In this document: one piece after another, positions 1 through 41,929 of the stretch | Position numbering within the stretch: position 1 is the first letter of the stretch | How the letters are laid out: every line of letters begins with the position of its first letter | Virus record (IMG/VR): IMGVR_UViG_3300033233_000011 | Source: an uncultured virus (IMG/VR IMGVR_UViG_3300033233_000011) | Taxonomy: Duplodnaviria; Heunggongvirae; Uroviricota; Caudoviricetes | Reading direction: 5' to 3' (one strand) | Length of the DNA stretch: 57,384 nucleotides | The notes under the pieces: generated by a model | What the model was told of the DNA's origin: nothing | Seen by the model: only the letters and a program-made list of their open reading frames with translations | Databases searched by the model: none | Program-made: the position numbers and the translations under genes

Positions 1-880
1 GCGCGAAGTCGTACGCGGACCCGGTGTTCGCCGTCGCGAGTACGCTCGCGCGGTGGTGATCGACGTACAAGACGCGAATGAACGCCGCGAAGCCGTCGGC
101 TGCGTTCGTGAACTTCATGAAGCAGGCGTTGTAAGGCGTGCCGTCGGCGTGGTGGTCGATGCACTCGAAGGATCCTGGGCCGCACGGTGGCCGACCCGAC
201 TGCATCGATCCGAAGTTGAACGAGCCGACACCGCCGCAGCAGAGATCCGGTCCGTATTTGGTGCAGGCGTGTTGCCAGTTACCATAACCGGACTCGCAGA
301 GCGCGATGCCCTGCGCGAACTGGGCCTCACGGAGAGTCGGCTCCTTGCCGAAGACCTGCCTGAAGCCGGCGACGACTCCGGCGCGAGCCGAGGCGTGCGT
401 GAGCGCTTCTTCCTCGCCCTGCCCCAGCCACTCGAAACCCGAGCTGAGCCCGCACACGTGCGCGCCCAGGGCCCCCGCCGCCCTTCGCCGCTCGTCCCGG
501 CGCTTCTCGACCGTCCCGAGCACGCGCCGGTGCTCCGCCGCGTCCCAGCCGAGCCCGACCCGCAGTCGCTCCGCCCAGCGGTCCGCGCCCGGCTCGTCCA
601 TGGGCTCGCGGCGCTCCCACTGCCGCGCGTGACCGACCTCGTGCCCAAGGGCCCACTCGTGGACGGCTCCGAGGGTGTGCGGGCCGCCCGACTCGTCCGC
701 GACCTCCACGAGGTCCTCGCCGTCCACGACGACGCGGCCCGGGGCGAAGTAGCTGGAGCGGTTCGGGGTCCGGTCCTGCCAGACGAGGCGCGGGTGGTTC
801 GTGGTGAGGGAGGCCGCGCAGATCTTCTGGAAGAGCCCACGCGCTTCAGGAGGCTCGTCGTGGAGCCAGGCGGCGAGCAC
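1..880 (-). CDS. Partial (runs off the left edge): HExxH zincin-like domain fused to a glucosaminidase/lysozyme-like muralytic domain; candidate virion-associated lysin
   Basis: Absent from the ORF track because there is no stop in the window. Manual translation from GTG 880 gives ...WALGHEVGHARQ...SGFEWLGQG...AQFAQGIALCESGYGNW...FNFGSMQ...FMKFTNAADGF, resembling GH73-type AQxxLESGxG/NxFG motifs. Confidence 0.6.
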   Translation of the reverse strand, partial: MLAAWLHDEPPEARGLFQKICAASLTTNHPRLVWQDRTPNRSSYFAPGRVVVDGEDLVEVADESGGPHTLGAVHEWALGHEVGHARQWERREPMDEPGADRWAERLRVGLGWDAAEHRRVLGTVEKRRDERRRAAGALGAHVCGLSSGFEWLGQGEEEALTHASARAGVVAGFRQVFGKEPTLREAQFAQGIALCESGYGNWQHACTKYGPDLCCGGVGSFNFGSMQSGRPPCGPGSFECIDHHADGTPYNACFMKFTNAADGFAAFIRVLYVDHHRASVLATANTGSAYDFA

Positions 881-883
881 GGG

Positions 884-1462
884 CTACGCCTCGATCCACT
901 CGATGACGCCCGGGACTCCGTGCAGCTTTCCGTACTGGTCGGCGGCGCTGGCCGACGTCTCCGCCGTCGCGCGCACGGACGCCGCGAAGGCCGCCGGCAT
1001 CTCGCCGGCCGGCAGCAGCAGCCGGTGCGCGAGCAGCACGGCCTGCCGGGCCGCCTGCGGGTAGAACTTCGACACGTTCTTCGCCCAGTCCGTGAGCGGC
1101 GAGGTGTCCTGCTTGGTCGCCTTCTTGATCCCGTCCTCGTACTGCTTCGCGACGTTCGGGGTCATCCCCTGCAACTCGCGCACGTAGTCGCCGAGCCCGA
1201 CCGCGTTCACGCCGGAGCCGTTGAGCTTCTCGATCACGTTGCCGAGGCGCGTGCGGTCCGTCGTGTGGAACGCGGCGAACTCCAGCATCACGATCTGGTC
1301 GTCGGTCAGGCGCGGCTGCTGCTGGTCCGTCGGCGGGAGAGTCTGCTCCGGTGCGGGCGCGGGCGCCTGATCCGTGGTGCTCTTCTTCCTCGACGCGACG
1401 AGGAGGCCGACGCCGACGCCCACGATGCCACCGATGACGAAGCTGATCGCGTCGGAGGCCAT
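884..1462 (-). CDS. Membrane-anchored protein (N-terminal TM helix), putative virion protein
   Basis: ISFVIGGIVGVGVGLLVAS followed by RKK; ends GVIEWIEA. Confidence 0.7.
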   Translation of the reverse strand: MASDAISFVIGGIVGVGVGLLVASRKKSTTDQAPAPAPEQTLPPTDQQQPRLTDDQIVMLEFAAFHTTDRTRLGNVIEKLNGSGVNAVGLGDYVRELQGMTPNVAKQYEDGIKKATKQDTSPLTDWAKNVSKFYPQAARQAVLLAHRLLLPAGEMPAAFAASVRATAETSASAADQYGKLHGVPGVIEWIEA

Positions 1463-2887
1463 CTACTTCAACGCGATCCACACGATGGTGCCGACCACGG
1501 CCGCCCCGACGACGTACAGGACCGCGTTCGACTTCGTGGGGGCGCCGCCGTCGCCCATCGGCAGGTCGGTGTCGCCGCTCGCGGCCGTGCTGCACGCGAC
1601 CGGCATGGAAGAATCGATCGACTTCACGGCAGCGGCCGTCACGTCGTTGTACTCGCCCGTCACGGACAAGCCGAACGCCTTCTGCACGCGGCTGACCATC
1701 GCTGGCGCGAGACCGCAGGCGCCCTTCGGCGTTTTCGAGACGAGCATCCAGGCGGTGTGAAGAGCCCGAACGGCAGAGCCGATTTCCTTCTGCGCGTCCG
1801 GTGGCAGGCTCTGGTACTGCTGCCGGTAGGTGTTCGGGTCCGTCTTCGATCCTGCGCCGCCCTGCCTCACCCCGGTGCCGGCGAGCTTCTTCAGCTCGTC
1901 CTTCACCCTCGACAACTTCGCGTCGAAGTCCTTGCGCCAGTCGAGGTAGACCTGCATGCCGGTGTCGTAGGCACCGATGTCGACCTGGGGATCGCCGCTG
2001 TTCGGGTCGATCTTCACGATCGTGCTCTGACAGATCGGCCGCGGGCGATACGGCCATGCGACAAGCCCCGCGGCCGAGCAGTCGTCCGGCAACCAGTCCA
2101 TGCAACATGGCGACTGCTGAACACTCGGGTCCATCGGTGGCGAGCCACAGTTCGGTGCCGGGTCTCCCGGGTTCGCCGTCCGCTTCTTGCACCACGGATC
2201 GTTCGCCGAAAGGGCAGTGAGTGGCGCACTGTGCGACTTGCCGGGCGGGTTCAGCCTCTTCAGGACGTCGAAGACCTGCGTGTGCGTCACGTTGTAGCTC
2301 GACGCAAGGCTGTCGATCTGGTGGTTCAGGTACTGCACGAGATCCGCGTACGCCGCCGCGATGGCGTTGTACTGCTCCTCACCGATCACGTTCTGCGGCG
2401 CGCCGATCCACTCGAAGCCTGAGAGCATGCTGCCTTGGGTGCCCGCTCCCGGCATCACGTACTCGTTGGCGCACAGCTTCCTCGACCACTTCTCGACCCA
2501 GCCCGCCGAGGACGTATGCACGAGCACGCGCGCGTGCGTGCAGTAGTCGGCCGGCAGAGGGAACGCGAGCCCGTGCGGCCACCAGGCGGGGACGGTCGGA
2601 GTGCGCCCCGGGTACGGGTTCCACCACTTCTTGAGTTGCTGCTCGGCGATCTGCGAAGCAGCTACCTCGGTCGTGTCTCCCTCCCAGACAGCCGCCTCGT
2701 AGCCCCAACTTGAACCACGCGGCATGAAGTGGAGCTGCACGCGGTAGCGGCCGAAGCCTGGCGTCGGACCGACGCGCGCCGGGGCGCCGTGCGCGGAAGC
2801 GGCGCTGGCCGAACGGAGCCGCATCGCTTCCATGTCGCCGACGCCAACCGTCCCAGGTTCGTCGATCCACTCGCAGATCGCGTTCAC
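1463..2887 (-). CDS. Cys-rich putative virion protein with peptidoglycan-binding-like domain and C-terminal TM anchor
   Basis: GTG 2887 overlaps the upstream stop; VSRVQKAFGLSVTGEYNDVTAAAVK resembles PG_binding_1; C-terminal AVLYVVGAAVVGTIVWIALK; two EW motifs. Confidence 0.65.
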   Translation of the reverse strand: MNAICEWIDEPGTVGVGDMEAMRLRSASAASAHGAPARVGPTPGFGRYRVQLHFMPRGSSWGYEAAVWEGDTTEVAASQIAEQQLKKWWNPYPGRTPTVPAWWPHGLAFPLPADYCTHARVLVHTSSAGWVEKWSRKLCANEYVMPGAGTQGSMLSGFEWIGAPQNVIGEEQYNAIAAAYADLVQYLNHQIDSLASSYNVTHTQVFDVLKRLNPPGKSHSAPLTALSANDPWCKKRTANPGDPAPNCGSPPMDPSVQQSPCCMDWLPDDCSAAGLVAWPYRPRPICQSTIVKIDPNSGDPQVDIGAYDTGMQVYLDWRKDFDAKLSRVKDELKKLAGTGVRQGGAGSKTDPNTYRQQYQSLPPDAQKEIGSAVRALHTAWMLVSKTPKGACGLAPAMVSRVQKAFGLSVTGEYNDVTAAAVKSIDSSMPVACSTAASGDTDLPMGDGGAPTKSNAVLYVVGAAVVGTIVWIALK

Positions 2888-3669
2888 GCGGCCCTCTTGT
2901 GCTTCTCTGCCGAGCCGACGGCCCCTCCGCCGCGAAAGGCGAACCACATCCCCGCGACCGCCGCGGCGCCGAGCAGGAGCAGGCCCCCCGCGCCCATGCC
3001 GGACTTGGTGGTGCCGGTGACGGGAGGGGGCTCCTGCTTCTTCACGCAGTTCGGGGGCGTGCCCTCCCAGCCTTCAGCACAAGTGGCCGGCGGCGTCGTG
3101 CCGCCCACGATCTTCGAGCAGTCCGGGATCTTCAGCGTGCAGCCGGGCGGCAGATCGGTGATGTCGGACTCGTCGAGGATCTTCTCCTGCGTCGGGTAGT
3201 CACCGAAGATGCGCTTCCACTCCTCGCAGTCCTTCTTGTTGAGCTTGTCGCCCGTCGATGGGGTCGAACCCTTCGACGTGAGGATCTCCTTGATGATCGA
3301 GGCGACGCCGATTTCCCCAGAGCAGAGCTTGTCGGTGATCTGCTTTCGCTTGCTCGTGCCGTAGCAGACCTGCCAGGCGTGGTAGCAGTCCACTTCGAGC
3401 GACCTGACGGCCGTCTCGATGTCGGACTTGCAGGTGGCATCGCAGGCGGCGTCGTTGTACTGCCTCTTGAGGTCGTCGTACCGGTCCCGAAGGATCTTCG
3501 CCCTCGACGCCAGCCCCGAGTCGAACGCGCACGCGGACTCGGCCATGTAGCAGCGGTTCGGGTAGCCCGGCAGTGCCCCGAGCATCCCCGGCTCCCCGAG
3601 CCACTCGAACCCCGGCGGCCCGCCGACCGTCCCCGGGCTCTCGTCGATCCACTCGCAGATGGCATTCAT
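2884..3669 (-). CDS. Cys-rich putative virion membrane protein, possible degenerate LysM
   Basis: Starts MNAICEWIDESPGTVGGPPGFEWLGEPGMLG; DLPPGCTLKIP resembles the end of a LysM; C-terminal hydrophobic GGLLLLGAAAVAGMWFAF. Confidence 0.65.
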   Translation of the reverse strand: MNAICEWIDESPGTVGGPPGFEWLGEPGMLGALPGYPNRCYMAESACAFDSGLASRAKILRDRYDDLKRQYNDAACDATCKSDIETAVRSLEVDCYHAWQVCYGTSKRKQITDKLCSGEIGVASIIKEILTSKGSTPSTGDKLNKKDCEEWKRIFGDYPTQEKILDESDITDLPPGCTLKIPDCSKIVGGTTPPATCAEGWEGTPPNCVKKQEPPPVTGTTKSGMGAGGLLLLGAAAVAGMWFAFRGGGAVGSAEKHKRAA

Positions 3670-4571
3670 GGCACGACCGGTCCTTCCATCGAGTCACACG
3701 GGAACGCCTCGAACAGCATCGCCCCGGCGACGCGCCCGTAGATCGCGTTCGGGAAGCTGGACAGGAACTGGTCTTCGGGTCGCATGCCGGGCAGGTTCGG
3801 GTAGGGCGGCCGGCTCGACGGGTTCGTCTGCCGCACCGAGGCGTAGAATGCCACGGCTCCGGGTCCGCGAACAACCTCCGAGAGCGCGTAGTCCGTGTTC
3901 CCCCACGGGAACCTGATGTCGCGGAACGTGCCGAGCGCCCCGAGCGCGTCGCCCGGCGGCTGGCCCGAGGCGGGCGGCACGTACACGGCCGCGATCGTCG
4001 GCACGTAGAGCAGCACGGACTCCAGGCTGCGCGTGTTCGGGCTCGTGCCGGGGAGCTGACTCGGGTCGACCCGGCGCGAGGAGAACCTGTTCTTCTGCCA
4101 CCGGAGGTGCCAGGAGATGTTGCCGTCGAGGAAGCTCCAGAGGGGCGAGACCACCTCGCGCTCCAGCGTCAGGAGGCAGTCCGGCGGAAAGTCCTGACTC
4201 GGCTGCGCGCCGTCGCCCGTGCAGCCCCGGATCGTCGCGAGCTGCCGCAGGCCCCGGATCACGATCGCGTAGCCGGCGGGGATCTCCACGCCGCACAGGC
4301 GGATCAGGTACCGCGTGTCCTGGCTCACCGTGAACGCCGCGGGGACCGTGACGCCCGTCCGGCCCATGTCGCCGAGGTACGGGGAGGATCCGACGCCGGT
4401 CAGGTCCGGGTCGAACGAGGCCGACGCGATCTCGCGCAGGTCCTGCCGCGCGCCGTCCTGGACGAGGCTCTCGCGGGTGGACGAGAAGCTCCGGCGCGGG
4501 CCGATCGACCGGACCGCTGCTCCGGTGCGCTGCCTCTGGTCCTGGTCTGCTACCGCAAGAGTCTTCGCCAA
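3666..4571 (-). CDS. Putative structural protein (beta-rich)
   Basis: Operon position downstream of the capsid candidates; alternating hydrophobic strands; no TM. Confidence 0.55.
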   Translation of the reverse strand: MAKTLAVADQDQRQRTGAAVRSIGPRRSFSSTRESLVQDGARQDLREIASASFDPDLTGVGSSPYLGDMGRTGVTVPAAFTVSQDTRYLIRLCGVEIPAGYAIVIRGLRQLATIRGCTGDGAQPSQDFPPDCLLTLEREVVSPLWSFLDGNISWHLRWQKNRFSSRRVDPSQLPGTSPNTRSLESVLLYVPTIAAVYVPPASGQPPGDALGALGTFRDIRFPWGNTDYALSEVVRGPGAVAFYASVRQTNPSSRPPYPNLPGMRPEDQFLSSFPNAIYGRVAGAMLFEAFPCDSMEGPVVP

Positions 4572-4581
4572 GGGACGCCCC

Positions 4582-5298
4582 CTAGGCGAGCTGCTTTGGC
4601 GTGGGGTTCAAGTAGCCGGCGGAGACCAGCGCCTTGACCGCCGTGTCCAGGGCACACGAGTCGTAGCGCGTCGGCAGCCGCACGCAGTGCATCGTGATGA
4701 CGGCGATGGTCGGGATTTCGCCTACGACCACCTGCCCCGACGTCCCGACGAACTCGCGCGTGTTGACGAACGTCGCGCGGATCTGCGCCGAGCAGCCGAG
4801 CACGAACCCGACCGGGCAGACGCACTCGAACGTGTTCTCGATGTTTTCGAGCGGCGTCGGGTCCGGGGAAATCAAGTACCGGCAGTGGCTCTTGATCGTG
4901 AGCGTGAAGTCGATGTTCGGGTTCTTCGCGTTGAAGAAGTCGCTCTGCGCCTTGAAGATCGAGTTCGCAAAAGCGTTCGGGCGCTTGACCGTGTAGACGA
5001 CTTTCCTGACCCACAGGTCCGCCTCGACGATCCCGTCGAGCTGCCCCTCGACCTCCGTGTTCGCGGCGCCGGTCTCGAACGTGCCCGTGAGTTTGAGGAT
5101 CTCCCAGCCCCAGCCGCACGTCGGGTCCCCCCAGCCGAGCAGGTCCGGCCGGATGAACTCGGCGTCCGCCGAGACGCCGCCCAGGAGCGCCACGGCCAGC
5201 CTCGGGTCGTGGCGCGCGACCTCGCCGAGCCACCCGGACCGGCTCATGTCCGGTCCGAGGAGCTTCGGGGTGCTGGGGTCGTTCGAGGAGCCGTCCAC
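4582..5298 (-). CDS. Candidate minor/second capsid protein (possible single jelly-roll)
   Basis: Strand-like segments LKLTGTF, ADLWVRKVVYTV, IDFTLTI, QIRATFVN, IAVITMHCVRL; fold is inferred only. Confidence 0.45.
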   Translation of the reverse strand: MDGSSNDPSTPKLLGPDMSRSGWLGEVARHDPRLAVALLGGVSADAEFIRPDLLGWGDPTCGWGWEILKLTGTFETGAANTEVEGQLDGIVEADLWVRKVVYTVKRPNAFANSIFKAQSDFFNAKNPNIDFTLTIKSHCRYLISPDPTPLENIENTFECVCPVGFVLGCSAQIRATFVNTREFVGTSGQVVVGEIPTIAVITMHCVRLPTRYDSCALDTAVKALVSAGYLNPTPKQLA

Positions 5299-5319
5299 GG
5301 GCTACGAGGGCCTTTCGGG

Positions 5320-6606
5320 CTACTCGCCGTCCGGGGTGAGCGGCATCACGATCGTCCGCGGCGTCGCGCCGAGCACGCCCTGCGCGTGCTTGACGGCCTC
5401 GGCGGCCGAGAGCTTGCCGATCGTGCCGCCCGCCGCGCCGACCTGCGAGAGCAGGCCCTGCAACCCGCGGACACTGCCGTACATCTGCCCCATCGCGCCG
5501 CCCGGGACGACGTACTCGTTGAGGAACTGCACCGCGGCCTGGGGCCACAACTCGATGCCCTTCATCACGACGCCGAGGCTGATGCAGCCGCCCGGGACCG
5601 TGGTGATGGCGCCGCAGTCCGCGCCGACGCCAGCGTCGTCGTTGAAGCTCCCGTCGGCGGTCGTCTCGTTGATCGTCGAGGTGTTCTGCAGCGCGCTCTC
5701 GCACGCGCCGCCGAGCCGGACGAAGTTCACGTCGAAGCGCATGCCCGGCGTGAAGAGGATCGGCTGGCACAGGGGGTAGATCCTGTTCGCGAGGCCGATG
5801 ATGCGCGGGTGGCCGTACGTGACGCCCGCGAGGGGCGGCGGCAGGCAGCACGAGTCGCTCGACCCGCAGCTCCCGGCGAGGATGCCCGTGTTCGCCGTGA
5901 CGAAGCGCTCGGCGATGATCGGGTCCTCCTTCGAGGCCAGGACGTCGTTGACGGCGCGGATGAACGGCATCGTCGGGATGCGCGAGTCCGAGGCGCCGAC
6001 GAACTCCGGCGGCAGCGGCGTCATGCCGATGTCGAGCAGGGACTCGTTGACGATCTCGAACCGGCGCTGCACGAGCACGCTCAGGCGGAACGCCTGGAAG
6101 AACTTCTCGATGAAGCGCCAGGTCGGGCCGCCCCACCAGAGCGTCGCCTTGTTGTTGATGACGTTGCCGCGCACGGCGCCGCAGTACTCGTCGCAGCCTT
6201 CGGTCATGCCGGGCACGATCGGCACCGCGCTGTCGTCGCCCGTCGGCACCATCGCGCCGTGGACCGAGAACGCCTCGCCTTCGCCGATCGCGACGATGCC
6301 GACCGCGCACGCGAGGAAGATCGTGTTGACGCCCGATCCGACCTCGGCGTTCGTCTGCTGGTTCGCGACCGGCTCGCCGTTGGCGAACACCTTGATGTTC
6401 GACATGAACCGCGCCTCGAACTCGGCCTGCGTGAACGGCAGCGAGTGCGTGGTGAAGTCGTAGTAGTACGTCGGGATCTTCGCCCAGCCGTACGACTTGA
6501 GCGCGTCCATGTCGCCGAGCCGGCCGAACTCGTGCGGGGAGCCGAGCTTGCCGAGGGGCTGCCGGACGATCGCGTGGGGGTTCTGGGTCTTCGCTGCGGT
6601 TGCCAT
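5320..6606 (-). CDS. Candidate major capsid protein (non-HK97, possibly vertical jelly-roll)
   Basis: 428 aa, strongly GC3-biased codons, purine-rich RBS region (AGAAAGAGAG), directly after the basic core-like gene; YYYD...F...TN...F pattern and beta-rich composition; fold unverified. Confidence 0.5.
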   Translation of the reverse strand: MATAAKTQNPHAIVRQPLGKLGSPHEFGRLGDMDALKSYGWAKIPTYYYDFTTHSLPFTQAEFEARFMSNIKVFANGEPVANQQTNAEVGSGVNTIFLACAVGIVAIGEGEAFSVHGAMVPTGDDSAVPIVPGMTEGCDEYCGAVRGNVINNKATLWWGGPTWRFIEKFFQAFRLSVLVQRRFEIVNESLLDIGMTPLPPEFVGASDSRIPTMPFIRAVNDVLASKEDPIIAERFVTANTGILAGSCGSSDSCCLPPPLAGVTYGHPRIIGLANRIYPLCQPILFTPGMRFDVNFVRLGGACESALQNTSTINETTADGSFNDDAGVGADCGAITTVPGGCISLGVVMKGIELWPQAAVQFLNEYVVPGGAMGQMYGSVRGLQGLLSQVGAAGGTIGKLSAAEAVKHAQGVLGATPRTIVMPLTPDGE

Positions 6607-6666
6607 CTTGGTGCTCTCTTTCTAGGCAAGGAGCGCCCGGGGTCCGGGTCGCCTCTTGCCGGTGGA

Positions 6667-8355
6667 TCAGTCGTCGAAGTTGAAGAGCGAGTGGACCTTC
6701 TGCTCGGGGCCCATCTCGCCGTTCGAAGGCGTGCCGCGCACGCCGCTGAACGAGGGGATGCTGACGGACGCGAAGTTCGCGGCGGCCTGCGAGACCGGAC
6801 CCGGGCACGGGACCGGCACCGCCGGCGGCGGGTTCGCCGAGAAGGTCGGCAGCGGGACGACGGCGCCGGGGATGCTGCCGTCAACGGCGGTCTGCGGCGC
6901 GTGCTGCCCGTAGACCGGAGGCACTTCCGGCGGGCGGATCCTCGTGCCGCGCGTGTCGGGTGCGCCGTCGCCTCCCGAAGCGGTCAGCTTCGAGAAGATC
7001 GGCCCGCACATGCTCTCCGGCAGGATCACCGACGATCCGACCGACGGGATGGTCCCGCCGTTCAGGGCCGCGATGGTCTCCATGTTGACGCCGGCAGCTC
7101 CCGCCATCGCGGCGAGGTCGTCGCCGGGCTGGATCATGTACTTGCACTTCCTGCCCGCCTGGTCGCAGTCCGGGCACTCCTTGTAGCCCGAGCAGTCCGA
7201 CCAGCACCCGCGGCTCCCGCCGCACCCGCCGCACTTTCCGAGGCGGCCGGTGTTCACGAAGTGCCGCGGCGAACCGGTCGTGCCCGATGCGCCGCTATGT
7301 GCTTTTCCCGAGGGGAGCCCCTGGAGCGCGCCGGAACTGACCGGAGCGATCGTCGGGTTGTCACCGGGCGCCTGCGCCGACATGAGCTGCGGGATGGTCG
7401 GCCAGGTCTCGAACGCCTTGTCGATGTCGTCCTGCACGAACCCCTGCTCGAACGAGTAGAGGCGGTTGCCGATCGTCATCTCGCTCGGCTTGGTCTTGTC
7501 GACCGACATGAGCATGGGGCCCGCGTACCAAGTCCACAACTTCTCGAAGAGCGCGGAGCCCGCGCCGACCGAGAGGCCGCCGAAGAACCACGAGAGCAGC
7601 GGCTTGTTGCGCGTGAAGTACCCGAGCGCGACGGCGCCGACCGCGAGCGCGGCCTGCGCGCCGAGGCGCCAGGCGTCCGGCCGGCGGCGGATCGCGGCGG
7701 CCGCGTCCTTGCCGTACCAGGGGCGCTGACCCTTGACCTGCGCCGAGCCGTTGCTCGCGGACGCGGGAGTCCGCGTCGCGACGAAGCGGTCGAGCACGTC
7801 CGCGACGATGAGGCCGACGCCGACGCCGCCGATCGCGATCCCGTACTTCTTGACGCCCTCGCCCGAGAACGGGCCGGCGTTCGAGAAGATCCCCTGCTCG
7901 CCGGGGTTCGTGTGGCGCAGGGAGAGATCGGAGATCTCGGCCGGGTTGTGCCGGCGCTTCTTGCGGCGGCCCTTCTTGCGCTTGCCGCCGGTCGAGCCGC
8001 GCAGGTGGACCTGGATCGCCTGCGTACCCTTCTTCGGCACGGTGATGACGCGCGTCTTCTCGGTGTGCACGACGCGGCTCGAAGAGCGGTGCGTCGAGCG
8101 CGAGCGGGAGTGCCCGCCGGCGCGCTTGCGGCCGCGCTTGTGGCCCTTCTTGCGCTTGTGGCTCTTCTTCCTGGCGTGCGCCTTGCGCTTCTTGTGGCGG
8201 CGCTTCTTCGGCTTGCTCTCGGCACGAGCGGCGGCGCGGGAGGCCTTCTGGGCCTTCTTGATGTTGCGGCGCGCGGCGGCCTTCTGCTTGGCGGACGTCT
8301 TGCGCTTCTTCTTGCCGCTCTTCTTGTGCTTCTTGCCGCTCTTGCGCTTGGCCAC
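6667..8355 (-). CDS. K/R-rich core-like protein with membrane helices, Cys cluster and LysM domain
   Basis: GTG 8355 after GAGG; about 130 aa K/R/H-rich N-terminus; hydrophobic helices (IAIGGVGVGLIVA, AALAVGAVALGYF, LLSWFFGGLSVGAG); KYMIQPGDDLAAMAGAAGVNMETIAALNGGTIPSVGSSVILP is LysM-like. Confidence 0.75.
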   Translation of the reverse strand: MAKRKSGKKHKKSGKKKRKTSAKQKAAARRNIKKAQKASRAAARAESKPKKRRHKKRKAHARKKSHKRKKGHKRGRKRAGGHSRSRSTHRSSSRVVHTEKTRVITVPKKGTQAIQVHLRGSTGGKRKKGRRKKRRHNPAEISDLSLRHTNPGEQGIFSNAGPFSGEGVKKYGIAIGGVGVGLIVADVLDRFVATRTPASASNGSAQVKGQRPWYGKDAAAAIRRRPDAWRLGAQAALAVGAVALGYFTRNKPLLSWFFGGLSVGAGSALFEKLWTWYAGPMLMSVDKTKPSEMTIGNRLYSFEQGFVQDDIDKAFETWPTIPQLMSAQAPGDNPTIAPVSSGALQGLPSGKAHSGASGTTGSPRHFVNTGRLGKCGGCGGSRGCWSDCSGYKECPDCDQAGRKCKYMIQPGDDLAAMAGAAGVNMETIAALNGGTIPSVGSSVILPESMCGPIFSKLTASGGDGAPDTRGTRIRPPEVPPVYGQHAPQTAVDGSIPGAVVPLPTFSANPPPAVPVPCPGPVSQAAANFASVSIPSFSGVRGTPSNGEMGPEQKVHSLFNFDD

Positions 8356-8470
8356 AGTTACCTCGTCCGGTTGGTGGGCTCTGACTGCGTTCGCGACGCG
8401 CGCTTCGAATGGGTTCGATTCGTACTCATCGATGTCGCGTCGAACACGTTCTGCAGCCCTCGTCGTTCGC

Positions 8471-8500
8471 ATGTTGAAACCCAGCCGGTAAATCTGTCAA
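8471..8500 (-). promoter_or_regulatory. Candidate sigma70-type promoter for the structural operon
   Basis: TTGACA (8500-8495), 18 nt spacer, CAACAT; weak -10. Confidence 0.35.
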
Positions 8501-8885
8501 CCGAACGGACTTGAAATGGAAGAGGCTTGATCCGGATCTCGATCGAGAAATCGATCTCGGGCGCGCTCGCGCGCGGGCGCGCGAAGTTGATCAAAGCGAC
8601 GCACAGTGGCCGTCGCTACGACGGCACGAGTACGTCGGGTTCAACGGCTTCGACGACGAGCGGCGCGGGGGCGCCTAGTCACGAAATTCGGGGCGCGCAA
8701 GGGCGAGAAAATATTTTTTCGGGGTGCTCGCGGAGGGGCGCCCGGAGGGCGAATTTCTCGCCGCGCGTCGGGCGAGGACGCTGCGCCCGCACAAGTGGTG
8801 GTGCGTGAGCGGGGCCGCACGAGCACGTTGTGCGAGCGCAGGTGTCAGAGCGCAGCGGCAGCGCGCGGCGGCGGCGCGCAGCGCA

Positions 8886-9464
8886 TCAAGGCGAGATGAA
8901 GCCGTGCGCCGTGATAACGCATGAATCGGGGAGCGACAACTTCCACGCGAGTGGGCGTTTGCAAACGTGCAGATCCACCGGAGGATCGTATCCGTGTTCG
9001 AATGGGATCTTGCCGCCCGACCGCATCACGATCTTCGTCTTGTCTTCCGGGTCCACCGCGACGCCGTAGCGCGTGTACCGGATGAACCTGACCTTGCAGA
9101 CCTTCTTCCACGGCCCGTCGGGGATCTCCACGCCGCCCGAGCGCGGGCGCTCTTTTCCGAAGTACTCCGTCACCGCGCTCGGCAGCGCGCCGGATGCGTC
9201 GCGCCGCGTCCCCCTCCACCGGAGCACGTACAGCTCGCACTTCGGCAGGATCGCGGCCTCGGTGTCGTGCACGAGGACGAAGTCCTTCGGGATCGTGTCG
9301 ATGTCGGACGGCATCGCCTCGTCGTCGCGGTGCAGGTCGCAGCTCGGCGAGTAGCAGCCGACTTCTTCGGCCTGCTCCAGCGAGACGAAGGAGACCTTGT
9401 CGCCGCGCACGAGCAACTCGGTGCACTGGGACTCGTCGCAGGCGGTGGCGACCTTGGCGGGCAT
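8886..9464 (-). CDS. Hypothetical protein
   Basis: ATG 9464 (MPAKVATAC...), normal composition, operon context. Confidence 0.65.
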   Translation of the reverse strand: MPAKVATACDESQCTELLVRGDKVSFVSLEQAEEVGCYSPSCDLHRDDEAMPSDIDTIPKDFVLVHDTEAAILPKCELYVLRWRGTRRDASGALPSAVTEYFGKERPRSGGVEIPDGPWKKVCKVRFIRYTRYGVAVDPEDKTKIVMRSGGKIPFEHGYDPPVDLHVCKRPLAWKLSLPDSCVITAHGFISP

Positions 9465-9469
9465 CGGCG

Positions 9470-9913
9470 CTACCGATGATGCAGAACGGGGAGCTTCTTG
9501 TTGATGAAGTCCATCTCGTACTCTGACAAGTCCATACCGTCCTCGCGCTCGATCCAGAGGCTGTACGAAGTATTCGCGCCGGTACGGTAGTTCTCTTCCC
9601 CTTCGCTGACGATCCAGTCGTGCCTGCCCCGCGGACGCGACGACGACCACTCCAGCCACGTGTGATCGCGCACGACGCGGATCAGATCTTCGAGCGTGCC
9701 GTACTGCTCGCTCTTCTTTTCAATCCAGCCGCGCTCATCGGCATCGCCCTGCTCGGCGCTCTCGGGCGTCACGATCTCGTACGCCATCTTGTACCGGTAG
9801 CCGCCGTAGTCGGTCCAAGCATTGCGTCGCTCCTCGGGCATGTCTTCGAGGTCGTCCTCGGTGAGGATGGCGAGGCGCGGAGAGTTCGGATTCGAGAAGC
9901 GCGCGTAGTTCAC
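9470..9913 (-). CDS. RFSNP-tagged acidic hypothetical protein
   Basis: GTG 9913 overlaps the upstream stop; starts MNYARFSNPNS. Confidence 0.7.
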   Translation of the reverse strand: MNYARFSNPNSPRLAILTEDDLEDMPEERRNAWTDYGGYRYKMAYEIVTPESAEQGDADERGWIEKKSEQYGTLEDLIRVVRDHTWLEWSSSRPRGRHDWIVSEGEENYRTGANTSYSLWIEREDGMDLSEYEMDFINKKLPVLHHR

Positions 9914-10401
9914 GCGGCCCTCCGGACGATCTGCTTCGAAGTGATCCGGATCGCGTTGAACCTCTGGTTCGCCCGATGCGGCCCGAGCGCCCGTTCCTGC
10001 TCGACGATCTTCCTGCGCTGCTGCGTCGTCGGAGCGAACGAGAGCACGTACTTGCCGAACCGGAACAGGTGCGCCTCGCGCCCGTCGAGCGTCACTCGCT
10101 CGATGCTCTCGGGTGCGTCGAGACGCACCTCGTACTGGACCTTCTCGCCGGGAATGAATCCGTGCCAGGGATTGGACTGCTTGGTCGCCTCGGCGCCGCT
10201 CGGGTTCTCGACCCGCAGGTCCTTCTTCTTGACGAACAGCTTCTCGCCGTCGTCGAGCTTCACCCACGCGCCGCCGTAGACGATCTGCTCGACGCACCCA
10301 TGAGCGTGGTGCTTCTCGTCCACCATGAACCGGACCTGCTTGCCGGGCGCCATCGGGTGCGCGTCGCAGGCGTGCGGGTTCGAGAAGCGGGCGAAGTCCA
10401 T
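9910..10401 (-). CDS. RFSNP-tagged protein with small beta-barrel-like segments separated by NP motifs
   Basis: Starts MDFARFSNPH; internal RVENPS and KQSNPW. Confidence 0.7.
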   Translation of the reverse strand: MDFARFSNPHACDAHPMAPGKQVRFMVDEKHHAHGCVEQIVYGGAWVKLDDGEKLFVKKKDLRVENPSGAEATKQSNPWHGFIPGEKVQYEVRLDAPESIERVTLDGREAHLFRFGKYVLSFAPTTQQRRKIVEQERALGPHRANQRFNAIRITSKQIVRRAA

Positions 10402-10811
10402 CAGTCCCACCACGCGCGGATCTTGCCGTTTCGAAAATCCAACTCGTCGGGCCCTCTACTCTTGAGGATCGCCATCAGCGCCGCCTTCTTGCCCTTCTTC
10501 GGCGTGACGAGCAGCGTCGCCGCGTAGGGGCCGCAGTCGCGGGCGATGCGCCTCGGCTCCTTGTAGATCCCCGAGATCGTGACCCTGCTCGCGCCGGCTT
10601 GGTACAGGTCTTCGACGTGGCGAGCGATCTCACTCTTCGAAAAGGCCTCGCCCGCGAACGGGTACTGGTTCTCGTTGTCCCGGAGCCACGCTCGCGCCTC
10701 GGTCGAGGCCGGCACGCGCGACGGCTTGCAGTCGGCTTCTTCTTTCTGCTGTGCGGGCCGCGCCGCGGCCGACGGCTTCAAGAAGCTGAAGAGCTGGTCG
10801 AGGAACGACAT
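10401..10811 (-). CDS. Hypothetical protein
   Basis: 136 aa, coupled to both neighbours. Confidence 0.65.
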   Translation of the reverse strand: MSFLDQLFSFLKPSAAARPAQQKEEADCKPSRVPASTEARAWLRDNENQYPFAGEAFSKSEIARHVEDLYQAGASRVTISGIYKEPRRIARDCGPYAATLLVTPKKGKKAALMAILKSRGPDELDFRNGKIRAWWD

Positions 10812-11035
10812 CAGACCCGATCCGAGAGCGTGCGCCGCAAGAGCCCCGTCTGGTACGGATCGCCCTCCAGCCGGTCGTACAAGTAGACGACCACCGCCAG
10901 CGCCCGCTTCTTCGGCAGGAGGTCGAGCTTCTGGATCGCGTACGAGCGGTTGCCGTTCCGCCAGTCCTCGGCCAACTCGTCGGCGAGACGCGAGGCGCTG
11001 AAACCGTGCGGGTTCGAGAAGCGCGCGTAGGTCAT
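10811..11035 (-). CDS. RFSNP-tagged small protein
   Basis: Starts MTYARFSNPH at ATG 11035. Confidence 0.65.
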   Translation of the reverse strand: MTYARFSNPHGFSASRLADELAEDWRNGNRSYAIQKLDLLPKKRALAVVVYLYDRLEGDPYQTGLLRRTLSDRV

Positions 11036-11045
11036 CGCTGGCATC

Positions 11046-11630
11046 CTACCCGATCCACTCAAAGACGCGAAGCCCGAGCCCGTGCACCGTCCCCGCGGGC
11101 GTCAGCCGGCGCCACGTCCCGTCCGGCCCGACCTGGAACGTGACCGGGCTGCCCGCGGCCTCGCCCGCGCCGGCCCACTCGATCCACGCGCCGCCGAGCA
11201 GGATCATCTTCACGTTCTTCCGGGCGAACGGGTTCGACGGGCTCGGGTCGCGCACGAACGCCGTGGAGCCCGCGAACACGTGCAGCGGGTACTCGCCGCC
11301 GAGCGGCGCGCCGGCACCGAGCAGGGCCGCCGCCTCCTCCTCCGTCTCGGGCGCGCGGTCCACGTAGAAGGGCCGGCCGCCCACCGAGGGGCCCTTCATC
11401 GGGTCCGGGAGCTGCGGCCCGGCGTCCACCATGAGGTGCTGCACGCCGGGGTAGCCGCCCACGGGGTTCAGGTCCGTGGGCTTCGCCTGGTACGGCGGCC
11501 GCTTCGGGGGCGGCTCGATGTGGTCCCCGTCGGAAGGCGCCGGAGCAGCGGAGGCCGGCTTCTTCCGACCGACCCACAGCGCCCCGAGAGCCGCTGCGGC
11601 GCCGGCCGCCGCGACCCACCAAGTCTTCAC
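11046..11630 (-). CDS. Membrane-anchored putative virion protein
   Basis: GTG 11630; N-terminal WWVAAAGAAAALGALWVG; ends GLGLRVFEWIG. Confidence 0.65.
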   Translation of the reverse strand: MKTWWVAAAGAAAALGALWVGRKKPASAAPAPSDGDHIEPPPKRPPYQAKPTDLNPVGGYPGVQHLMVDAGPQLPDPMKGPSVGGRPFYVDRAPETEEEAAALLGAGAPLGGEYPLHVFAGSTAFVRDPSPSNPFARKNVKMILLGGAWIEWAGAGEAAGSPVTFQVGPDGTWRRLTPAGTVHGLGLRVFEWIG

Positions 11631-12748
11631 GCAGCCGCCGCTGCCGTGCGCGTCCTGAGGAGTGGCGGGATCACCTGCGCGCCGACGTAGAGCGCCGCCG
11701 CAGCCGCGGCGACCCACAGGACGGTCTTCAGCACGCCGCCGACCTGCTGCGTGATGTCCTCGCCCAGGTTCGACTTCGTCGCGCGTTCGAGATCCGCCTG
11801 GCTCTGCCGGATCGCGCCCTGCATCGCGGCGATCTGCTCGGGCGTGCACGGCGGCTGGCCCGGCTTGTTGCAGCCGAGTTCCATCGCCTTCGCGACGGTC
11901 TGCTCGTGCATCCAGACCTTGATCGCGTCGTGCGCCGAGACGCAGAGGTAGACGGTGGCGAGGGCCACCGCGGTGACGGCGATGATGGCGACGATGGTGA
12001 CGGGCTCGCCGACGCCGGTGCCGTGGACGACCTGGTTGGTGGAAGCAGAGACCACCACCGGCTGCCCGCCGCGATCTTCGAGCCTGAACTCGTCGCCCGG
12101 CAGCGCCCCGATGACGAGCTGGCCGCCGGCGTCGTAGCCGACCTGGCGCTTGCCCGACAGGGCGTCGTCGAGGAAGCTCGTCGCGACTTTCGAGAGCTGC
12201 CGCACGTCGAAGACGCGCTGGTTCTCGTCGGGTGAGAAGCCCTTGCCGATCGCCGCGAGCGTCTGCGTGCTCTGCTCGTAGACGCGCTTCGTAGAGTCCC
12301 AACCCGAGACGAGGTTGTTTCGAAGGGACCCGAAGAGGTCCGTGATCGCCGCGGCCGCGGGGCTCGCCTGCTCCTCGCTCGGCGGCGGAGCCGTGGGGCC
12401 AGACGACGGAGCGCCGCGCGCCTGCACTTCTCCCTGCACGCCCGGCGCGGCTTTCTGGCCGAAGAGTTCCCAGTGCCAGCCGCCCGACCCGCCCTGCCCG
12501 ACGGCCTGCTTCCAGACGAAGATCCCAGCCCAGTCGTACGAGCCTCCCGGCTTGACGTTCGAGTAGAGGACGGACTGCTGGTCGGACAGTTCGTTCCGGT
12601 TGAGCTTGACCGGACCCCAGGCGTAGAGCCGGACCCAGGAGGAGCCCGTCCACTGCCAGCCCTCGAAGAAGTAGTACTTCTTCTCCCAGATGAAATCGCC
12701 GAGGGCGCCGGAGGGCGGGTCGATCCACTCGAAGACGTTGGCGGACAT
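11627..12748 (-). CDS. Putative virion membrane protein (two TM helices)
   Basis: Starts MSANVFEWIDPPSGALG; Trp-rich N-terminal domain; TM segments IVAIIAVTAVALATVYL and VLWVAAAAAALYVGA. Confidence 0.7.
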   Translation of the reverse strand: MSANVFEWIDPPSGALGDFIWEKKYYFFEGWQWTGSSWVRLYAWGPVKLNRNELSDQQSVLYSNVKPGGSYDWAGIFVWKQAVGQGGSGGWHWELFGQKAAPGVQGEVQARGAPSSGPTAPPPSEEQASPAAAAITDLFGSLRNNLVSGWDSTKRVYEQSTQTLAAIGKGFSPDENQRVFDVRQLSKVATSFLDDALSGKRQVGYDAGGQLVIGALPGDEFRLEDRGGQPVVVSASTNQVVHGTGVGEPVTIVAIIAVTAVALATVYLCVSAHDAIKVWMHEQTVAKAMELGCNKPGQPPCTPEQIAAMQGAIRQSQADLERATKSNLGEDITQQVGGVLKTVLWVAAAAAALYVGAQVIPPLLRTRTAAAAA

Positions 12749-12786
12749 CCGAGAGGACGATACACGAGGGGCCCGCCCTCGTCGAG

Positions 12787-13014
12787 TCAAACTGTTTTCG
12801 TCGCGCGCCAGACGTTCCACGCGAACGCGACCGCGTTCAGGACGAAGCCCGCGATCACGACCTTCTCGATGACGGACAGGGACTTCTTCGTGCCGTTGCC
12901 GTTCGGCGGCACGGCGGGCGGGGGCGCGTCGCCCGGGAGCTGGCCGAGCAGGCCCGCCTCGTCGATCCACTCGACGACCGGCTGCGCGGGGATCCACTCG
13001 ACGATGGCGCTCAC
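12787..13014 (-). CDS. Small membrane protein with doubled EW motif
   Basis: GTG 13014; MSAIVEWIPAQPVVEWIDEAGLLG...VVIAGFVLNAVAFAWNVW. Confidence 0.65.
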   Translation of the reverse strand: MSAIVEWIPAQPVVEWIDEAGLLGQLPGDAPPPAVPPNGNGTKKSLSVIEKVVIAGFVLNAVAFAWNVWRATKTV

Positions 13015-13439
13015 CTCGTCCTCCACCAGACGAAGCCGACGATCCCCACCGCGAAGATCCCGAGGGCCCACTCGAACCTGCGCTGGATCTTCTGCACCTC
13101 GGGCTGCACTTCGAGCACCAGGCGCGGGAGTTCTTCTTCGAGCTTCGTCTGCAAGATCGGCCACGCGGAGTCGACGAGGTCCCGGCCGACGACGGGGGCG
13201 TACTGCCGCGCCCTCGTCATCGCGTCGTCGACGAGCGTCGGGACCCAGTAGCGCGCGTACGCCAGCGCGTCGCCGACGAGCGCCTGCGTCGGGAGCGTGA
13301 TCGCCTGGTTCGGGCCGCCGTAGACCTCGACGCCGAGGACCTTCATCACCGGGATGTCCACGAAGTACGTGCGGATCTCGCCGGGACCCGCGCCAAGGCG
13401 GCCGGGCTCGTCGGGGAGCCACTCGACGATCGCGCCCAC
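13011..13439 (-). CDS. Small membrane protein with C-terminal anchor
   Basis: MGAIVEWLPDEPGRLG...FEWALGIFAVGIVGFVWWRTR. Confidence 0.7.
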   Translation of the reverse strand: MGAIVEWLPDEPGRLGAGPGEIRTYFVDIPVMKVLGVEVYGGPNQAITLPTQALVGDALAYARYWVPTLVDDAMTRARQYAPVVGRDLVDSAWPILQTKLEEELPRLVLEVQPEVQKIQRRFEWALGIFAVGIVGFVWWRTR

Positions 13440-13442
13440 AGT

Positions 13443-14954
13443 TCAGCGCCCCCACACGTAGTACGCGACGCCGCCGGCCACCGCGAGCGCGCCGATGACG
13501 AGCGGGGCCTTGGACTTCGAGGAACTGCCGGATCCGGCTTCCATCGACGCCTTCGCCTGAGCCTTCGCCTGAGCCTTCGCCGCCGCCGCGTCGGCCACCA
13601 GCACGACCGCCGCCTTCTTCTTCATGGCCTCCAGCGACACGAGCCAGGCGATCCCCTGCTGCATGACGTCGGCGAAAGGCTGGCGCTGCGCGCCGAACCA
13701 CCATTTGTAGAGCGGCGGCACTCCGAGGCAAGCATCACGCGCGGCTACGGCCCCGTCGCGCCCCGCCTGCACGGTACTGCACTGACCGACCGCGTACGTC
13801 TTCAGGCCAAGTTGCACGAGCAACGTCCGCATGTCGAGCACGTTCAGGCGCCCGGCGTTGAGCTTGCCGGCGAGCTTCAGGAGGTCGTGATCGATCTGGT
13901 CCGCTCGCTCGTAGAGAGTAGCTTCCAGCTTCCTCACGGCGGCGTTCTGCTCCCAGTACTGCGCCTCCTCCGCAGCCCGTCGCGCCCTCTCCTGCTCCGC
14001 GGAGTCGTCGCCGAACAAGCTGCTCCAGACATCCGCGAAAAAATCGAAGATCGGGCCGGCGAGGTTGGCCGCCGCGCTCGAACAGATGTCGACGGCGACC
14101 GGACCGCCCTCCGCGCAGAACGCGCCGGCGGCGGCCCCCGCCGCGGCTTGCGCGCAGGAGCGCAACTCGGCGCGGCTCGTGCCCTTGCAGTTCTGCGCCG
14201 CGTCGATGGCGGCGTTCGACGTCGCAACCCCGAGCCACTCGACCCTCGTGTCCTCGGGCCCCGCGAGCCACGTGAACACGGGCCGCTCGTCCTCGGGGAT
14301 CCCATTCACGCCGACGAACATGCCCTTGGTGACGAAGCCGGACTTGTCCGGGTCCCACTTCGTCGGGTCGTTCCGGAGGCACACGTCGTCGTCGCAGCGG
14401 ACCTTCATGTCGGGCAGCGAGATGATCCGCTCGCGGGTGAAGTCCACGCACTTGCTGAGAGGAAAGTCGGTGGAAGGATCCGCGTAGTGCCAGCGCTTGC
14501 CGACGCGGACCGCGCACAAGACGTGCTCGATGTTCTTCTTCTTGTCGTAGGCATGGCCGACCACGAGCGTGTAGAGACCGACGGACATGAAGCACGACGG
14601 CAGCAAAATGGTTACGTCGTCGCAGTCCCCGCCCAAGAAACAGATCTCGTCCTTCGTGCTCCGGTCGCACGCCATCAAGTGAGCACCCGTCATGAACTCG
14701 GTGCCGACCGGATCCGGCGTCCAGAGCTTCCTCTGCACCGCACGCAGAAGGATCTCGGCGCGCTCGCGCTCCGTGTTCGCCTTCCGGCCTTCCTCACGCC
14801 GCGCGCGCTCCAGGCACTCAATGGCCCACGCCCGGACCTTCGGGCTCTGGTAGCCCTCGACAACCTTCTTGGCCACCTCCTCCAAGCTGAGGCGCACCCC
14901 GGCCTCTCCCCAAGGATGCTCTCGCTTCTCGATCTTCAACTCCTGCCCGAGCAC
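13443..14954 (-). CDS. Transglutaminase-like Cys-His-Asp protein (candidate maturation protease) with C-terminal TM anchor
   Basis: GDCDD...EHVLCAV...WHYADPS triad pattern; C-terminal LVIGALAVAGGVAYYVW. Confidence 0.75.
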   Translation of the reverse strand: MLGQELKIEKREHPWGEAGVRLSLEEVAKKVVEGYQSPKVRAWAIECLERARREEGRKANTERERAEILLRAVQRKLWTPDPVGTEFMTGAHLMACDRSTKDEICFLGGDCDDVTILLPSCFMSVGLYTLVVGHAYDKKKNIEHVLCAVRVGKRWHYADPSTDFPLSKCVDFTRERIISLPDMKVRCDDDVCLRNDPTKWDPDKSGFVTKGMFVGVNGIPEDERPVFTWLAGPEDTRVEWLGVATSNAAIDAAQNCKGTSRAELRSCAQAAAGAAAGAFCAEGGPVAVDICSSAAANLAGPIFDFFADVWSSLFGDDSAEQERARRAAEEAQYWEQNAAVRKLEATLYERADQIDHDLLKLAGKLNAGRLNVLDMRTLLVQLGLKTYAVGQCSTVQAGRDGAVAARDACLGVPPLYKWWFGAQRQPFADVMQQGIAWLVSLEAMKKKAAVVLVADAAAAKAQAKAQAKASMEAGSGSSSKSKAPLVIGALAVAGGVAYYVWGR

Positions 14955-15732: not shown

Positions 15733-16088
15733 CGAGATCCCCGTAACCGGAAGCGGCGAGGCGCCGGGCTCGCGACGGTGGCCTTCGCCCACGCGACGAG
15801 GCCGCGGGCGCAGGCGTCAAGGGCACGCCCGTACTTCTTCCAGAGCGTGCGAGAGGCCCGAGTAGGTCCGTACCCGTACTTCGGGCGAGCGCTGACCCGT
15901 TCCCGCTTCTGGATCTCGTCGCGCGTCTCGGCGAGCGCAACGATCGACCGGGCAACGCCGACGAGCGCGCGGTCGGCCTCCCGCGACAGTTTCACCCTGC
16001 GCCCCCAGTCCCGCATCCGCTTCTTCTGCGCGGCCGAGAACGGACGCTTGCTGATGACGAGCCGCCGGTGCTTCGCGTGTCGCTTCAC
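15729..16088 (-). CDS. Basic hypothetical protein
   Basis: GTG 16088 overlaps the upstream stop. Confidence 0.5.
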   Translation of the reverse strand: MKRHAKHRRLVISKRPFSAAQKKRMRDWGRRVKLSREADRALVGVARSIVALAETRDEIQKRERVSARPKYGYGPTRASRTLWKKYGRALDACARGLVAWAKATVASPAPRRFRLRGSR

Positions 16089-17818: not shown

Positions 17819-17820
17819 CG

Positions 17821-18135
17821 CTACGTGACGACCGGCTCGTCGGCCGCGATGAGCGCCGGGGTCCGGGCGCTGAGCGTCTGGCAGTAGATCCCCCGCGTCG
17901 CCGACTTCTTGTCGTCGGGGGTCGGGTAGAGCGACTCGCCGAACGGCAGGACCGTGAGCGCGATGGTCCGGACCGCCTCGTTCGTGCCCGCGACCGTCAC
18001 GTCGGTGGAGATGCTCATGCCGAGGATGTCGAGTTCGCCCTGGTCGAACGGGACGGCACCGAAGAGCGTCACGAACGCGGCGAGCGGGACGAGGCCGGGC
18101 TTGGCGCGGTAGACGAGGGTGACGGTGGCGGGCAT
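17821..18135 (-). CDS. Hypothetical protein
   Basis: 104 aa, operon context. Confidence 0.65.
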   Translation of the reverse strand: MPATVTLVYRAKPGLVPLAAFVTLFGAVPFDQGELDILGMSISTDVTVAGTNEAVRTIALTVLPFGESLYPTPDDKKSATRGIYCQTLSARTPALIAADEPVVT

Positions 18136-37069: not shown

Positions 37070-37087
37070 TGGATCGCACCCGAGGCG

Positions 37088-41538: not shown

Positions 41539-41712
41539 GACGAGACTCCTCTGCTGTCCGAGCTTGGCCCGGTGGTTGGTGTGGTCGTCGCCCGTGGGCG
41601 CGGCCGCGTTTTTCTGCTAGATTCAGTTCCCGCGGGCGCTCGCTCGCGGCGCCCCGGTCTTTGGTAGGTCCGGCAAGATCCCTCGGGGCGAGCGCCCGCT
41701 ACACCTCCCTCG

Positions 41713-41922: not shown

Positions 41923-41929
41923 GGTCCGT

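Follow-up and report, generated by a model that had tools for sequence, protein, structure and literature searches.

The window analyzed here is a 57,384-nucleotide stretch of DNA from the uncultured virus IMG/VR IMGVR_UViG_3300033233_000011. Nine unrelated proteins encoded on the minus strand at positions 1–14954 carry a short tag built around tryptophan, and a related tag is conserved in related viruses as hydrophobic-x-Trp-hydrophobic, usually followed by Leu/Val-Gly. An earlier note on this DNA had interpreted the peptide either as an address or as a cleavage signal. Judged from the sequences, these do not look like alternatives; address and cleavage appear to belong to two neighboring elements. 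The reading that we favor, at a probability of about 0.5, is a two-part code in which the Trp element would dock membrane proteins on the forming shell and a cysteine enzyme would trim them at glycine.

The nine proteins that contain EW[IL], the spelling of the Trp element in this genome, and the catalytic residues of the enzyme are as follows.

422–466, minus strand: internal tag ending FEWLG in open reading frame (ORF) 2–880, which is open at the window edge; the tag lies at the seam between an HExxH-bearing N-terminal part and a domain.
884–1462, minus strand: 192-residue protein with an N-terminal anchor and the C-terminal tag IEWIEA (887–904) after L-H-G.
1463–2887, minus strand: 474-residue tail-anchored protein with an N-terminal tag (2837–2875) and an internal FEWIG (2402–2416).
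2884–3669, minus strand: 261-residue Cys-rich tail-anchored protein with a double tag (3571–3657; CEWID..GTVG..FEWLG..GMLG).
11046–11630, minus strand: 194-residue protein anchored at its N-terminus, with V-H-G-L-G ahead of the C-terminal tag (11049–11093).
11627–12748, minus strand: 373-residue conserved two-segment membrane protein with an N-terminal tag (12698–12733).
12787–13014, minus strand: 75-residue minimal tether with two Trp elements, GLLG, a Pro linker, and one anchor; tag at 12943–13002.
13011–13439, minus strand: 142-residue tail-anchored protein with an N-terminal tag (13392–13427).
13443–14954, minus strand: transglutaminase-fold cysteine enzyme carrying a double tag (14229–14276) on a disordered linker that leads to a helical body and a tail anchor.
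14622–14624, 14523–14525, and 14478–14480, minus strand: Cys111, His144, and Asp159 of the enzyme triad, respectively.

All of the peptides quoted in the earlier note were located on the minus strand at the positions given there. Using the gene calls made in this analysis, 12 copies of EW[IL] were counted in the 4752 residues (111 Trp) encoded at 1–14954, and 5 copies in the 11698 residues (229 Trp) encoded elsewhere in the window (Fisher p = 0.0012 per Trp). Within-protein shuffles gave a mean of 0.70 copies and a maximum of 5 in 5000. These window p-values are post hoc because the pattern was read off the same window, and the related viruses therefore serve as the out-of-sample test. Six of the 12 copies lie near the N-termini of four tail-anchored proteins and the 75-residue tether, two terminate the N-anchored proteins, and the remaining copies are internal. 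The polarity described previously, with the tag on the end away from the anchor, holds for the predicted anchors.

The glycine half of the motif was also counted. GxLG occurs 11 times in the module (1–14954) against a shuffle mean of 3.1, a count reached by 0 of 2000 shuffles. The complete EW[IL]...GxLG arrangement, which had been ascribed to all nine proteins, is found with GxLG downstream in the four that end at 3669, 12748, 13014, and 13439, and does not extend to the other carriers: the 2887 protein has GTVG in place of GxLG, and the proteins at 11046 and 2–880 have GLG or GALG upstream of the tag. The copies previously assigned to domain junctions coincide with gene-fusion seams for FEWLG of ORF 2–880 and for the enzyme; the copy at 2402–2416, in a protein without a BLAST match among the fetched loci, may mark a further seam. 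At the seam of ORF 2–880, residue 151 is aligned with residue 5 of homologues that are separate genes in loci L008 and L030 and start L-L-W-L-G, and the part after the seam is a stand-alone gene in relatives. The enzyme gene is likewise split at its own tag in several relatives, where the next gene begins with a tag of its own.

A feature of the nucleotide sequence, such as a ribosome-binding site or copied gene starts, or simple chance, is hardly credible as the origin of the repeats. GAG TGG does encode Glu-Trp in all 12 copies, and the two C-terminal tags overlap a purine-rich stretch ahead of the next start codon. Nevertheless, the 12 copies of the DNA word GAGTGG[AC]T in 1–14954 are in frame with a called gene in 12 of 12 cases, two near-identical leaders differ at synonymous sites, and the codon ahead of Trp varies freely among relatives. 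A nucleotide-level origin is thus already contradicted by the reading frame and by the comparison across genomes, and shuffles never reach the observed count.

Relatives were defined as loci or records with the same gene order, and their proteins were clustered at 55% identity. Weak matches (L005–L007) and loci duplicating another fetched record were omitted from the counts of position, polarity, and dialect; genome G006 (54% GC) was read from its longest ORFs only and does not enter the counts. In the close clade, 24 of 66 tail-anchored proteins, from 15 sequence families, have [VIFL]xW[LIV] within their first 30 residues, compared with 13 of 342 soluble proteins (p = 1.4e-12); among windows taken from the bodies of these tail-anchored proteins, 12 of 346 contain it. 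The Trp is residue 5 or 6 in 24 of 33 cases. The corresponding values for [LVI]G[QAED] in the close clade are 35 of 66 tail-anchored and 38 of 342 soluble proteins. The glutamate, which the earlier note included, does not belong to the general motif: EW[IL] was found in only 2 of 55 tail-anchored relatives, and Glu is a dialect of this genome.

The tags are spelled more alike within a genome than between genomes, as expected of a shared partner. For 45 tags on nonhomologous proteins, the mean BLOSUM likeness is 6.3 within genomes and 2.5 between genomes, a gap reached by 0 of 2000 permutations. A second dialect, HP-x-D/N-aromatic, was found in G003 and G005 with the same polarity as the Trp tag; genes with this dialect lie near 54499–56842 of G003 and 37320–39758 of G005. 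Its spacing is that of the N-terminal arm of the capsid candidate described below (P-x-D/E-aromatic-x-x-L-G), which suggests mimicry of a capsid binding arm.

The position of the glycine relative to the tryptophan was compared at the two ends of proteins. When the Trp element has no immediate Gly, [LVI]G is found within 25 residues in 13 of 19 cases and in 143 of 393 body windows (p = 0.007). In both C-terminal tags of the window, hydrophobic-x-Gly comes first. In the HP dialect of G003 and G005, 7 of 7 C-terminal copies follow [LI]xG and two N-terminal copies are followed by LG or VG, although these copies are on related proteins and are not independent events. The Gly element, which follows the N-terminal Trp elements and precedes the C-terminal ones, therefore tends to be on the body side of the Trp element. 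In the compact form x-W-L-G, represented by 21 copies, the two elements overlap.

The enzyme at 13443–14954 has the transglutaminase-like fold that the earlier note had supposed. Its model aligns with transglutaminase 3 (8oxx_A) over 173 residues with a Z of 11.7 and a root-mean-square deviation of 4.0. Structural matches at Z 8 or more were obtained for 102 chains, the top ones being transglutaminases 3 and 2 and factor XIII (Z 11–11.7). C111, H144, and D159 are invariant in 23 of 23 rows of the sequence alignment, and no match to the enzyme was found in Pfam. Intein-like insertions at the catalytic Cys, which fit an essential active site, were recognized by pattern in 8 of 34 enzyme homologues. 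Those noted in P0005, P0006, P0007, P0011, P0016, P0019, P0020, and G009 78839–80977 are about 30–340 residues long, are placed exactly at the Cys, and end in Gln or Asn.

The Trp element follows the enzyme domain, by pattern, in 30 of 33 rows; the other 3 are negative since the pattern was anchored at the wrong place. This arrangement can also be explained if the whole motif were a protease recognition site, with the Trp and the upstream hydrophobic residue bound by enzyme subsites or an exosite, cleavage at the Gly, and no docking on the capsid. The copy on the enzyme itself would then be a cis regulator, like pVIc for the adenovirus protease. The compact x-W-L-G reads like P5–P1 of a substrate, the leaders of the capsid proteins also end in LG, and the dialects could have followed changes in the enzyme no less than in the capsid. 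We regard this explanation as possible but doubtful. In the monomer model, which was built from a shallow alignment, the tag of the enzyme is undocked in a linker (residues 208–245) with a predicted local distance difference test (pLDDT) score under 50. The loss of 6–8 residues from diverse cargo would be purposeless without a prior binding role, and the minimal tether would be reduced to a bare anchor. Moreover, the Trp element cannot serve solely as a cut site, because each of the 9 rows with a stand-alone enzyme, from about 6 distinct viruses, ends no more than 25 residues from it, where cutting would set nothing free, and the tether consists of tag, linker, and anchor. The C-terminal tags have nothing after them to release, and they therefore lead to the same conclusion.

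Alternatively, the enzyme could form cross-links between the shell and the tagged proteins, for instance via the Gln after Leu-Gly, and so be a true transglutaminase or transpeptidase. Its top structural matches are of this type, and W[LIV]G is most often followed by Gln (9 of 21). Gln is missing at this position from the other 12 of the 21 compact tags, LGQ occurs within the tag in only 2 of the 9 window carriers, and PNGase and LapG share the fold, which therefore does not fix the chemistry. Cross-linking is quite improbable on these grounds.

The capsid candidate and the conserved proteins encoded near it are as follows.

3666–4571, minus strand: conserved 301-residue protein, possibly a minor capsid or vertex protein; 12 homologues.
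4582–5298, minus strand: conserved 238-residue protein, possibly a second capsid protein, with a variable leader ending (W/T/G)LG(E/Q).
5320–6606, minus strand: major capsid protein candidate, modeled as a single jelly roll with long insertions; 70 relatives; model pLDDT 86.6.
6667–8355, minus strand: basic core-protein candidate with membrane segments and Asn-Pro motifs.

In the model of 5320–6606 one jelly roll spans residues 40–355. The viral matches are HHIV-2 (Z 6.5), HCIV-1 (Z 6.4), SPV1 (Z 6.2), and P23-77 VP17 (Z 5.5), none of which reaches Z 8. Some cellular jelly rolls score like the viral ones, and the viral lineage is therefore likely rather than proven. Foldseek searches with the capsid and enzyme models gave no match at E 0.001 or better; the top viral row is a 211-residue protein, equal in length to SSIP-1 gp46, which it may possibly be. 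GxLG had been reported in both the capsid leader and the core protein. The capsid half of this observation holds, since the N-terminal arm of 5320–6606 contains GKLG...GRLGD at 6508–6552, and Leu-Gly closes the variable leaders of both 5320–6606 and 4582–5298. Among 32 close capsid homologues, [LIV]G[QDENT] is found in the first 75 residues of 22, compared with a shuffle mean of 7.2. In 4582–5298, Gly25 is invariant in 10 of 10 aligned rows; no usable feature match was obtained for this protein in Atlas. GRLG of the core protein is poorly conserved (2 of 7 other family representatives) and was rejected as a member. Two further candidates were set aside: LxG[LIV] at the capsid C-terminus (26 of 32), which is within a modeled helix and may be structural, and YLGD of 3666–4571, which the alignment places inside a conserved stretch and which is probably not a leader.

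The arm motif P-x-[DE]-aromatic-x-x-L-G, found in 12 of 32 close capsid homologues, matches the spacing of the HP dialect and suggests that a tag may imitate a binding arm. It could thus be proposed that the tag is an address only, which stays docked on the capsid or a scaffold, with Leu-Gly as part of the binding peptide or as a flexible hinge and with the enzyme acting elsewhere. The Trp element closes both the C-terminal tags and the stand-alone enzymes, and several genomes show modest enrichment of LG or none. An address alone is nevertheless rather unlikely, given that the Gly element changes sides with the end of the protein that is tagged and that a G-[LVM]-G seam is kept after the enzyme domain even in relatives without the Trp element.

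The cargo was characterized by a domain scan of 45 of the 55 listed proteins. SLT, GDSL, M15, M23, and CAP domains above the Pfam cut-offs were found in 5 of 45 tagged relatives. Wall-degrading cargo fits a particle that needs to cross a cell wall. Since the cargo has wall-degrading and Cys-rich domains without a classical signal peptide, the tag might act on a membrane or in export, either as an interfacial Trp anchor or as an unconventional signal for crossing the host inner membrane. The tails after the anchors are basic (K/R fraction 0.26 vs 0.09), and an outside location of the tagged domain would follow from the positive-inside rule; many anchors, however, have lysines on the tag side. 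Searches for the features of classical export signals gave an h-region-like segment in 1 of 31, a twin-arginine in 0 of 22, and a hydrophobic segment of the pilin type behind the Gly in 1 of 29, which excludes such signals. The tag is used at C-termini as well, and the dialects are hard to square with a lipid or a host partner. A role in the membrane or in export is accordingly very improbable.

The enzyme was also compared with a cultured virus. The phage SSIP-1 encodes a protein, gp34, that is homologous to 13443–14954 (hhalign probability 95.2, E 2.5e-8), shares its DCD, HV, and D motifs, GMG seam, and tail anchor, and is annotated as structural. SSIP-1 is described in part of a review as membrane-containing with two capsid protein types (PMC6356626). 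The capsid link to SSIP-1 is weak by sequence: the hhalign probability of the capsid alignment is 15.6 with gp45, and the comparison with gp46 was negative (probability 1.1). SSIP-1 differs further in its 44-kb genome and in the P-loop protein within its module; of its 8 tail-anchored proteins, only 2 have G[LM]G among their first 45 residues. A tblastn search with the enzyme domain and the capsid protein against 50,697 phage records, SSIP-1 included, gave no match.

Several results weigh against the two-part code. The Trp element was found in 0 of 17 tail-anchored proteins of the distant relatives G007 and G009, was not seen by inspection in G006, likewise a distant relative, and is at no late N-terminus in SSIP-1. 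All four keep the enzyme triad, and the Trp element is therefore not obligatory for this type of virus. The G-[LVM]-G seam is kept in these tag-less relatives and in SSIP-1, and the Gly element may therefore be older. G[LM]G is not significantly enriched across the late proteins of SSIP-1 (6 vs 3.3), and the modules of G001, G007, and G009 show no enrichment of [LV]G[QAED]. W[LIV]G is enriched beyond the module in G003 (18 vs 6.6), a record that repeats some genes. The register differs by end, with xLG at N-termini and LxG before C-terminal tags, and the C-terminal Trp of 11046 is kept in 1 of 3 homologues. Related proteins share descent, and the tag counts are not fully independent. The basic tails argue for one membrane topology and the lysines before the anchor for the other. 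Finally, proteolysis is an assumption because the closest structural matches are true transglutaminases.

With these points considered, we infer the following sequence of events for the two-part code. Element A, hydrophobic-x-Trp-hydrophobic, would be the address at the free end of each membrane protein. It would bind a shared receptor site present in many copies, most likely on the forming capsid shell, and docking would load interchangeable cargo and the cysteine enzyme into the particle, which would place the tagged proteins in the virion. Element B, Leu/Val-Gly and often GxLG, lies between element A and the body and also ends the leaders of the capsid proteins. It would be the likely trimming site, and would thus hold the scissile bond, for the transglutaminase-fold enzyme at maturation.

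Separate parts of this scheme have analogues in vaccinia virus, phage T4, and adenovirus, for which no homology is claimed. Vaccinia A17 has an Ala-Gly cleavage site used by the I7 protease. Passages of one paper describe how this membrane protein recruits the jelly-roll lattice of D13 and how A17 proteolysis then releases the lattice (PMC8971458). A17–D13 differs in its one dedicated partner, double jelly roll, and other protease, whereas the tag here is on at least nine unrelated proteins and at either end. The T4 capsid targeting sequence is removed by gp21. It is described in part of a further source as a short sequence common to diverse internal proteins that gets them encapsidated (PMC3012670). 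T4 differs in that its cargo is soluble, its tag is confined to the N-terminus, and its shell is of the HK97 type; in the present virus, the cargo has membrane anchors and the enzyme adopts a transglutaminase fold. The tag presumably does not have the site spacing of adenain. In adenovirus, two hexon-binding proteins (pVI/pVII) vie for a single capsid pocket and undergo proteolytic maturation, as stated in one study (10.1101/857581), and a section of another gives a Gly-containing consensus site for the protease and a peptide cofactor bound as a strand (PMC4246237). There is no membrane in adenovirus, the protease fold is another one, and the capsid protein is a double jelly roll. Since the capsid candidate models as a single jelly roll, the adenoviral parallel drawn previously is retained as an analogy and not as kinship, and SSIP-1, the sphaerolipoviruses, and SPV1 are probably the nearer relatives. 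The word transglutaminase is absent from a 2018 survey of double jelly rolls (PMC5894146).

The best viral matches of the capsid model, SPV1 (Portogloboviridae) and HCIV-1/HHIV-2, have vertical single jelly rolls and an internal membrane. A packaging ATPase is not known from the morphogenesis module of the SPV1 type. Membrane-proximal GPS proteins place the capsomers in HCIV-1, according to part of its description (PMC6414509), and a shared tag is not mentioned in the portions of the SPV1 and HCIV-1 texts that were compared. These viruses differ in that they infect archaea and have smaller genomes, that of SPV1 being about 20 kb. The window is part of a contig of about 119 kb, and its right part has phage-type replication genes. 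The virus is probably tailless, with a single jelly roll and a membrane, and infects bacteria; the lipid membrane of the virion is probable from the many anchored proteins and from SSIP-1. One related copy in a Gemmatimonadaceae bin is weak evidence for the host. A Walker A pattern scan found none in the module of the window and none plausible in the complete genome G001. A HerA-like P-loop ATPase is encoded among accessory genes at 23813–25531 (minus strand), outside the structural module. Strand switches are found at 41922–42133, a divergent pair of small genes resembling helix-turn-helix regulators, and at 48172–48203, where a plus-strand block ends at 48172. Clusters named by eye as glycosyltransferase- and sugar-nucleotide-enzyme-like lie downstream of the structural module at 42030–51776 of G001 and 36619–45236 of G003 (reverse strand), which suggests virion glycosylation.

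None of the nine carriers is named by Pfam or PHROGs above cut-off. The search for homologues of 884–1462 returned only itself, and BLAST of 1463–2887 against the fetched relative loci gave no match. At least 14 distinct homologues were found for 11627–12748, most of which begin with a tag or an LG leader. The three homologues of 11046–11630 end in FHWLS, in VVG, and without a tail, respectively. The tether at 12787–13014 has no other domain, and its start overlaps the upstream stop; Gly24, Glu50, and Lys51 are invariant in its alignment of 7 rows. Beyond the range of the earlier note, one more pair of peptides was considered.

16763–16777 and 17180–17194, minus strand: tag-like WNWLA and WNWLG, respectively, in the Pro/Gln-rich ORF 16085–17818.

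Their membership is doubtful, as they are matched in 1 of 14 homologues. The region 16085–18135 (minus strand) encodes this Pro/Gln-rich 577-residue protein and a 104-residue protein ending AxEPVV, a pair conserved just upstream of the enzyme in most relatives. The equivalent place in SSIP-1 is occupied by ORF33, which is also Gln-rich. The 577- and 104-residue proteins are candidates for a scaffold or tag receptor. A conserved 192-residue Cys-containing protein with no family match is encoded at 8886–9464 (minus strand), between the membrane genes and the core gene, and is present in at least 8 fetched loci.

Small or soluble proteins starting (Y/F/W)-(A/G)-R-F-S-N-P are encoded at 9470–9913, 9910–10401, and 10811–11035 (minus strand) and at 47240–48172 (plus strand), and loci L009–L011 have F-W-Q-N-P starts. 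The x-N-P motif recurs in core proteins, in the basic tails after anchors, and in SSIP-1. As a second code, these Asn-Pro starts may mark DNA-side proteins. The late proteins of SSIP-1 are enriched in [EQR]NP (6 vs 1.4), and [EQDAR]NP is not enriched over shuffles in the module of the window.

No published description of the tag or of this virus group was found in a search that left most subscription papers outside. The words "protease" and "proteolytic" are absent by word search from the review of membrane-containing phages (PMC6356626). A wider proposal, offered only tentatively and on balance doubtful, is that a large group of bacterial viruses matures like poxviruses. An address at either end, respelled in each genome, would tether at least 10 membrane proteins to a single-jelly-roll lattice, and the transglutaminase-fold protease would cut tags and capsid arms at Gly, uncoupling or shedding the lattice and exposing the wall-degrading cargo, with the second, Asn-Pro code marking DNA-side proteins. 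If so, maturation in the style of adenoviruses and poxviruses would occur in the single-jelly-roll lineage with an unrelated enzyme.

If the two-part code is correct, a tailless virus would swap its membrane cargo by the addition of six to eight residues. The conserved virion cysteine enzyme would have a function, and lipid-containing particles would have a loading tag. The link to the cultured phage SSIP-1 opens the trimming half of the code to experimental test.

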